64,000 nucleotides of DNA from an uncultured Clostridium sp. (lineage in GTDB: Bacteria > Bacillota_I > Bacilli_A > RF39 > UBA660), in contig CAMKPE010000003.1 in assembly GCA_946414595.1 (NCBI GenBank), positions 6,860 to 70,859 of the forward strand, written 5' to 3'. The notes under the pieces are model-generated. The model was not told the origin of the DNA. It saw only the letters and a program-made list of their open reading frames with translations, and did not search any database. Numbering within the stretch: position 1 is the first letter of the stretch; every line of letters starts with the position of its first letter. The translations under genes were made by a program, and so were the position numbers. Below are positions 47,352-47,417 of this stretch, piece by piece.

Positions 47352-47417
47352 TTTACAAAATAATTATTTTGAGAGATAATTATGTTAGATATTAATCTAA
47401 AATAGAGGAGGTTAGAT
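47352..47417 (+). promoter_or_regulatory. P5 promoter and three-arm TTAGAT/ATCTAA/TTAGAT leader
   Basis: TTTACA (47352-47357), 17 nt, GATAAT (47375-47380). Then TTAGAT (47385-47390) ATTA ATCTAA (47395-47400), SD GAGGAGG (47405-47411), TTAGAT (47412-47417). Confidence 0.6.

Follow-up and report, generated by a model that had tools for sequence, protein, structure and literature searches.

A 14-bp dyad that coincides with the predicted transcription start of several paralogous genes in this genome is, as far as sequence comparison can tell, most likely a cis-acting DNA element under purifying selection. The window analysed here, i.e., the whole stretch of 64,000 nucleotides, corresponds to C3:6860-70859 of an assembly (G000) of 1.44 Mb with 28% G+C, 38 contigs and 94.8% completeness. 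Family promoters and genes within the window are labelled P1 to P8, contigs of the same genome are given as C with a number, and other loci as L with a number, among which L036 and L118 are metagenome loci; N4 and N2 denote a 4-nt and a 2-nt centre of the dyad, respectively.

The conserved unit reads TAGAT[A/G]TTAATCTA, which is a 14-nt core with 5-bp arms around a 4-bp centre, the arm centres lying 9 bp apart (5-4-5 geometry). At P5, a sigma-A-type promoter, TTTACA-17-GATAAT, was found by promoter scan at 47352..47380 on the + strand (10/12 matches) behind a terminator at 47326-47345, and is followed by the dyad TTAGATATTAATCTAA at 47385..47400 (+; core 47386-47399), with the arms TTAGAT at 47385-47390 and ATCTAA at 47395-47400. 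The SD GAGGAGG, a further TTAGAT at 47412-47417 and the ATG at 47423 complete the leader (47405..47425, +). P6 has the promoter TTTACA-17-GATAAT at 48844..48872 (+, promoter scan), an exact copy of TTAGATATTAATCTAA at 48877..48892 (+; arms 48877-48882 and 48887-48892) and a downstream TAGAT at 48907-48911 (+), and both promoters lie directly behind the terminator of the preceding gene. The spacing is the same at P4, where TTTACA-17-AATAAT at 38796..38824 (+) precedes the class B dyad TTAGATGTTAATCTAT at 38829..38844 (+), which includes TTAGATGTTAATCTA at 38829-38843 and whose 14-mer is identical in C9:16245, C10:45944, L036 and L118. P7, with the promoter TTTACT-17-GATAAT at 49586..49614 (+, promoter scan) and a TG before the -10, carries the variant dyad TTAGATTAATCTAG at 49619..49632 (+), in which both arms are preserved around a centre that has lost 2 nt, giving the palindrome TAGATTAATCTA at 49620-49631. 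Its sister gene P8 keeps only the right half, TTAATCTAG, at 50453..50461 (+), including ATCTAG at 50456-50461 and followed by TAGAT at 50476-50480, the left arm having gone via three substitutions relative to P7, and P2 has only the left arm, TTAGAT, at 36820..36825 (+), 4 nt after TAAAAT. An earlier note on this DNA, made from the sequence alone, had placed the arms of P2 and P4 to P8 at these positions, every one of which agrees with the sequence, and had put the element 4 nt after the -10, as is indeed the case for the -10 hexamers ending at 47380 (P5) and 48872 (P6). Its conserved 16-nt TTAGAT/ATCTAA unit holds as a conserved dyad, but positions 1 and 16 are variable and the conserved core is confined to the inner 14 nt.

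In all eight element-bearing promoters (seven N4 promoters and P7), TAGAT starts 5 nt past the -10, i.e., after 4 spacer nucleotides and the variable first base of the 16-mer, whereas anything from 6 to 17 nt separates the dyad from the SD, suggesting that the element is tied to the promoter rather than to the ribosome-binding site. The usual spacing of 7-8 nt after the -10 would place +1 at an A or a G within the left arm (A47387 or G47388 at P5), so that the dyad would extend from about -1 to +13 and overlap the predicted start site.

The upstream regions of all paralogs were extracted and aligned, which gave three dyad groups. The full N4 dyad is present in five genes of this genome, with the centre ATTA in P5 and P6 and GTTA in P4, C9:16245 and C10:45944, and in the two metagenome relatives L036 and L118, of which the former encodes a protein (P0157) at most 47% identical to any paralog of this genome and the latter a protein (P0162) 50% identical to that of C10:45944, likely its ortholog. 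Variants are found in P7, with intact arms and a 2-nt centre, and in P8, the two long C29 genes and C9:30500, which retain mainly the right half (T/A)TAATCT; the remnants of TTAATCTA in the latter read TTAATCTT in C9:30500 and ATAATCTA and ATAGTCTA in the C29 genes. Only the left arm is seen in P2, C10:46699 and, as TTAGGT, P1. About 20 further family promoters share the -35 and -10 but not the dyad, and the dyad is also absent from the more distant relatives L115, L116 and L122. The metagenome and Logan contigs derive for the most part from this species or from one nearly identical to it, and independent dyad promoters came only from L036 and L118.

The search of the genome for other copies that the earlier note had proposed recovered the exact 16-mer twice in the window and four times in the 1.44-Mb genome. 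The pattern TTAGAT[AG]TTAATCT likewise occurs four times in the genome, each copy before a family gene, and a genome scan that allowed up to two mismatches and demanded promoter and SD context returned family promoters only. No promoter-context site outside the family was detected in genome scans for exact matches, for matches with at most one mismatch, for matches with at most two mismatches plus promoter and SD, or for intergenic half-sites; the off-family matches of these scans were coding sequence, a T-box leader, two terminator-like hairpins and the start of an excisionase-like gene. The element is specific to this gene family. The AT-rich genome contains the loose form TAGAT-N4-ATCTA 20 times; the other 15 occurrences fall within coding sequence, at a terminator-like hairpin or in comparable contexts. 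As a separate observation, among promoters of the form TTTACA-(16-18)-[TG]ATAAT with an SD in this genome, 10 of the 15 are family promoters, as opposed to none of those of the TTGACA type.

Since the loose motif is common, frequency is weak evidence, and the case for the dyad rests on its conservation relative to its flanks. Seven N4 promoters were compared (P4, P5, P6, C9:16245, C10:45944, L036 and L118), and the mean pairwise identity was found to be 0.95 in the -35 hexamer (5/6 columns invariant), 0.51 in the 17-nt spacer between -35 and -10 (3/17), 0.87 in the -10 hexamer (4/6), 0.55 in the 4 nt before the dyad (0/4), 0.97 in the 14-nt core (13/14) and 0.40 in the 10 nt after the dyad (0/10). 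Conservation of the core is thus on par with that of the -35 and -10 hexamers themselves, and its 13 invariant columns out of 14 compare with 3 of 31 in the neighbouring non-coding segments. The same holds within class B (P4, C9:16245, C10:45944 and L036), where the 14-mer is invariant at 14/14 positions versus 4/31 in the immediate flanks. All changes are confined to the centre (A/G at position 7, and a 2-nt deletion in P7) and to the outer positions 1 and 16; the arms show none, and the central TTA is also invariant. The genes behind the seven promoters share only 32-50% protein identity in the N-domain, and the five G000 genes with a full dyad are scattered on the protein tree (5/5 changes needed) rather than forming a clade. 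The concern about chance raised in the earlier note is therefore fair as regards the loose motif, with its 20 copies, but does not extend to the core with its 13/14 invariant columns against 3/31. Judged from these alignments, the dyad is a footprint and not a product of chance.

What reads this footprint is a matter of graded probabilities. The best supported of the readings considered, to which we assign slightly less than an even chance, takes the dyad as the operator of a dimeric repressor, both binding and repression being deduced from the arrangement of the site. Each 5-bp arm would serve as a half-site for a dimeric helix-turn-helix repressor, with 9 bp between the arm centres, and the bound protein would block open-complex formation or promoter escape; five to seven family genes would thereby come under common negative control, and paralogs that have lost either arm would escape repression. 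Consistent with such a site, the half-sites are two-fold symmetric, lie about one helical turn apart and are perfect in all seven N4 promoters. Furthermore, a start 7-8 nt after the -10 would leave only a 3-4 bp stem in the RNA, in which case the complete dyad would exist only as DNA. On the other side, the arms of P7 are 2 bp closer together, which a rigid dimer would not tolerate, the invariant central TTA is not required by symmetric arm recognition, and the retention of the right half in P8, C9:30500 and the C29 genes could point to a function in the transcript. An operator over the start was one of two readings offered in the earlier note; the invariant arms and the fixed distance to the -10 speak for it, no regulator was found, and it stays tentative.

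The search for that regulator covered several families. No candidate was found beside any family array, as the 12 HTH_3 matches, the one TetR and the LexA in the genome are all non-adjacent, and the models for MarR, HTH_5, HTH_20 and HTH_Crp_2 gave nothing above cut-offs in the 94.8%-complete genome, in which a staphylococcal ArsR protein used as query also had no homolog. Genome scans revealed no regulator gene with the site in its own promoter and no copy before a non-family gene, and a 182-aa and a 309-aa protein encoded in the window had no HTH match. MarR and Crp regulators were rejected, as no protein of the former family and no domain of the latter scored above cut-off in the genome, and so was an ArsR/SmtB regulon site, with HTH_5 and HTH_20 below cut-offs and no staphylococcal ArsR homolog in the 94.8%-complete genome. 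A 97-aa HTH_20-like ORF on C8, flanked by ftsY-like and ffh-like genes, resembles YlxM rather than a specific regulator, and LexA was set aside because lexA (C6:7070-7687) has AAACAATTGTTT over its -35 and no TAGAT dyad. The regulator could lie in the missing part of the 94.8%-complete assembly.

The literature search returned nothing that joins TTAGAT, ATCTAA and an operator, and comparison with known systems yields partial likenesses. The operator of MepR, a MarR-family protein, GTTAG-N4-CTAAC, spans the -10 and the start of S. aureus mepR (PMC3936728). It shares with the present dyad the 5-4-5 geometry, the 9-bp distance between arm centres, AT-rich flanks and the letters TTAG...CTAA, and MepR, sitting over the -10 and start, represses by promoter occlusion (PMC3936728), just as the present dyad sits on the predicted start. 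However, TTAG and CTAA are 8 bp apart here and 4 bp apart in the MepR operator, so that this is not the MepR signature site, and this genome has no MarR-family protein above cut-off.

A closer match in letters is provided by staphylococcal ars plasmids (arsR of the pI258, pSX267 and pN315 type), of which 148 records have the identical 14-mer, TAGATGTTAATCTA, in the interval from the promoter to arsR, 5 nt behind an ATAAT and some 20 nt upstream of the arsR start. ArsR is a dimeric, self-regulating winged-helix repressor, and Rosenstein et al. in 1994 reportedly described binding of the pSX267 ArsR to a dyad within the ars promoter. The gene controlled there is unrelated, however, and no ArsR/SmtB homolog was found in this genome. 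When 185,579 species genomes were scanned for the -10 plus the dyad, 70 matches over unrelated phyla were obtained, none of them before a family gene; the staphylococcal ars promoter apart, these look like chance, and the ars match itself may be a coincidence, as one of about 70 scattered matches. By analogy, the ars match may be taken as a lead that such a sequence at such a position can serve as an operator, and not as evidence of kinship. In the ars copies at L073:2988-3011 and L084:3813-3836, the 14-mer is part of a longer multi-arm dyad, ATAGA-N-AATAATCTATATAGATGTTAATCTAT.

The boxes of the FNR/CRP family, e.g., TTGAT-N4-ATCAA, usually activate from about -41.5. They have the same 5-4-5 geometry, and the C29 copies read TTGAT in the left arm, but 2/5 arm positions differ, the present dyad lies on the predicted +1, and no Crp-family domain scored above cut-off. 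As a type of control element, the dyad is ordinary, given that a palindrome overlapping the start site is a textbook arrangement. If it is an operator, it would give the first handle on the control of a lineage-specific, effector-like gene family, with P4, P5, P6, C9:16245, C10:45944 and perhaps P7 predicted to be co-regulated and others predicted to escape, and the dyad could serve as a 14-bp probe for fishing out the regulator.

Among the alternatives to a repressor site, the one that survives best, though unlikely, is that the element acts in RNA, either as a 5′-terminal stem-loop UAGAU-NUUA-AUCUA that counters 5′-end-dependent decay or as the target, centred on UUAAUCUA, of an RNA-binding factor. 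A 5′-end hairpin would equally need the constant spacing from the -10, the shorter centre of P7 still allows 5 bp with a 4-nt loop, and the transcribed right half is the part kept in P8, the C29 genes and C9:30500 despite loss of the left arm. The fully transcribed hairpin reaches -3.0 to -3.1 kcal/mol and beats most shuffles (z -2.4 and -3.3). However, the usual start would trim 1-3 nt from the left arm, leaving a 3-4 bp stem of -0.7 to -1.7 kcal/mol. The RNAalifold consensus contains only a small 5′ hairpin of -2.2 kcal/mol with an unfavourable covariation term of +0.55, the sole double change being at the outermost, mostly unpaired pair; as the arms never vary, there is no covariation to back pairing. 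No Rfam family matched at E<=1. Stabilising 5′-terminal stem-loops of Firmicutes place a hairpin at the very 5′ end of the leader, and the present hairpin resembles them in its fixed position relative to the promoter. It differs in that its stem has 3-6 AU-rich bp, at -0.7 to -3.1 kcal/mol, and probably begins partly upstream of the predicted +1, and a 5-bp stem this rich in AU is far weaker than the stabilising 5′ stem-loops of the B. subtilis aprE and ermC leaders. A 5′-end hairpin is thus possible but weak. A structured leader or riboswitch was rejected on the grounds that no stable fold, no covariation support and no Rfam match at E<=1 were found; the whole leaders fold about as shuffled sequences do in 5/6 cases (z -0.3 to -0.8).

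Somewhat less probable than an RNA element is that the dyad has no function of its own and belongs to a promoter-leader module that descends from the ancestral gene and has stayed uniform through gene conversion between the paralogs' conserved 5′ ends. Several pairs of genes fit such a history: the neighbours P5 and P6 share about 85% identity from the T-run of the terminator to codon 7 with proteins 37% identical, L032 and C10:47441 are almost identical upstream with proteins at 70.7%, and the leaders of P7 and P8 are nearly identical from the dyad centre on. Such mismatches between upstream regions and proteins indicate that the 5′ regions and gene bodies have separate histories, and the pair of L032 and C10:47441 makes protein divergence a poor clock, for which reason the argument for selection rests on the flanks. 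It is here that uniformity by conversion falls short, as conversion tracts leave no island such as that of class B (14/14 against 4/31 in the flanks) on three contigs and in another organism, and a conserved block would contain two perfect 5-bp inverted arms by chance about 1 time in 1000.

It is improbable, to a further degree, that the letters are a signal for RNA polymerase itself, i.e., a start-site or initially transcribed sequence that tunes open-complex stability or promoter escape, or a signal for an alternative sigma factor. The left arm does stand at the predicted start without a right arm in P2 and C10:46699 (TTAGAT) and in P1 (TTAGGT), the sequence gives T(-1) A(+1) G(+2), and TTTACA is the -35 of the family promoters. 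However, dyad symmetry is unexpected for contacts with RNA polymerase, most family promoters work with an identical -35 and -10 but have no right arm, and shared descent can explain the TTTACA bias.

A more elaborate version of regulation by a repressor, to which we attach only a small probability, would have the dyad mark the regulated subset of a toxin arsenal split into standing and inducible parts. A dedicated, unrecognisable DNA-binding protein, whose fold might escape the HTH models used, would silence the 5-7 effector genes until a signal arrives, and the arm-less paralogs would be constitutive; or else the reader would be the extra sigma-4-like modules of an oversized sigma factor.

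The second reading of the earlier note, a three-arm RNA switch in which ATCTAA pairs with either the upstream TTAGAT or the TTAGAT after the SD and so gates translation, is very improbable and was rejected, because the third arm is uncoupled from the dyad and the folds equal those of shuffles: the minimum-energy folds of P5, P7 and P8 do pair UAAUCUA(A) with (U)UAGAUUA with the SD in the loop, but they do not outperform shuffled sequences (z -0.26 to -0.81), leave the SD unpaired so that ribosome access would not be blocked, and lack supporting covariation, with the third arm outside any RNAalifold consensus structure. The third arm itself is present at P5 to P8, but is otherwise found only in one dyad-less paralog, C10:47441, and in its ortholog L032, and is missing from the dyad-bearing P4, C9:16245, C10:45944 and L036; it is part of a variant of the spacer between SD and ATG, GGAGG[A/T]TAGATT, common to P5-P8 and C10:47441.

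The genes behind the dyad promoters are paralogs that begin with M-(A/G/S)-D-G-W-T-G and share an N-domain of about 210 aa, some of them with unrelated C-terminal extensions. The P5 gene (47423..48817, +) combines this N-domain with a unique C-terminal domain and has no Pfam or NCBIfam match, and the P6 gene (48917..49543, +) encodes the N-domain only, in 208 aa. About 30 copies on nine contigs were found by tblastn of the genome and 31 by profile search, located at 36112-39515 and 47423-51393 of the window and on contigs C9, C10, C15, C29, C4, C23, C2 and C7; with 31 copies, the family takes up a large share of a 1.44-Mb genome. It was not found in 40 relatives searched, including 16 of the same genus, nor in GTDB representative genomes, and a full profile search of metagenome proteins gave 389 representative clusters that match it. 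The N-domain has no Pfam or NCBIfam match, and its predicted structure is a confidently modelled long helical bundle (pLDDT 88), for which no significant fold match was found in the PDB.

On C9 (G000:C9:9723-30500; L113, L114), the family array lies beside genes for a 1537-aa protein with FHA and an FtsK/SpoIIIE ATPase, for WXG100 proteins and for a YukD-sized protein of 87 aa, a set that, going by its gene content, is type VIIb-like. Behind every long family member on C9 comes a gene for a 117-119-aa protein of no known family, as in toxin-immunity pairs, and these small genes look like immunity genes. Given this putative secretion core and the toxin-immunity-like pairs, the family resembles a set of LXG-style effectors with a link to type VII secretion, membership in LXG itself not being detectable. 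The long members have similar Trp/Gly-containing ends, ...EWAGNWLW, ...VEWGGSLIK, ...LGWTGSWFN and ...NWVGGWFN, in the window genes 37586-38731, 47423-48817 and 50482-51393 and in G000:C9:11718-12884, and their C-terminal domains are otherwise unrelated. In one protein, P0014 (281 aa; L120:335-1180, ENA ERZ27276920), the family domain stands behind a 73-aa N-terminal extension, showing that the DGWTG motif is not always at the extreme N-terminus. At L032:7840-8030, from a related strain, 130 nt upstream are almost identical to those of C10:47441 with the proteins at 70.7% identity. It seems that gene bodies either are swapped or change far more quickly than the promoter-leader modules.

Two further features were observed in passing. 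The 309-aa protein encoded at 46398-47327 of the window, directly upstream of P5 and after a DNA polymerase IV gene, belongs to no known family and contains an HExxH motif (VHEFNHAV). In addition, the palindrome AAACAATTGTTT over the -35 upstream of lexA (L111:1350-1375; G000:C6) may be a variant SOS box, different from the GAAC-N4-GTTC that Firmicutes typically have.
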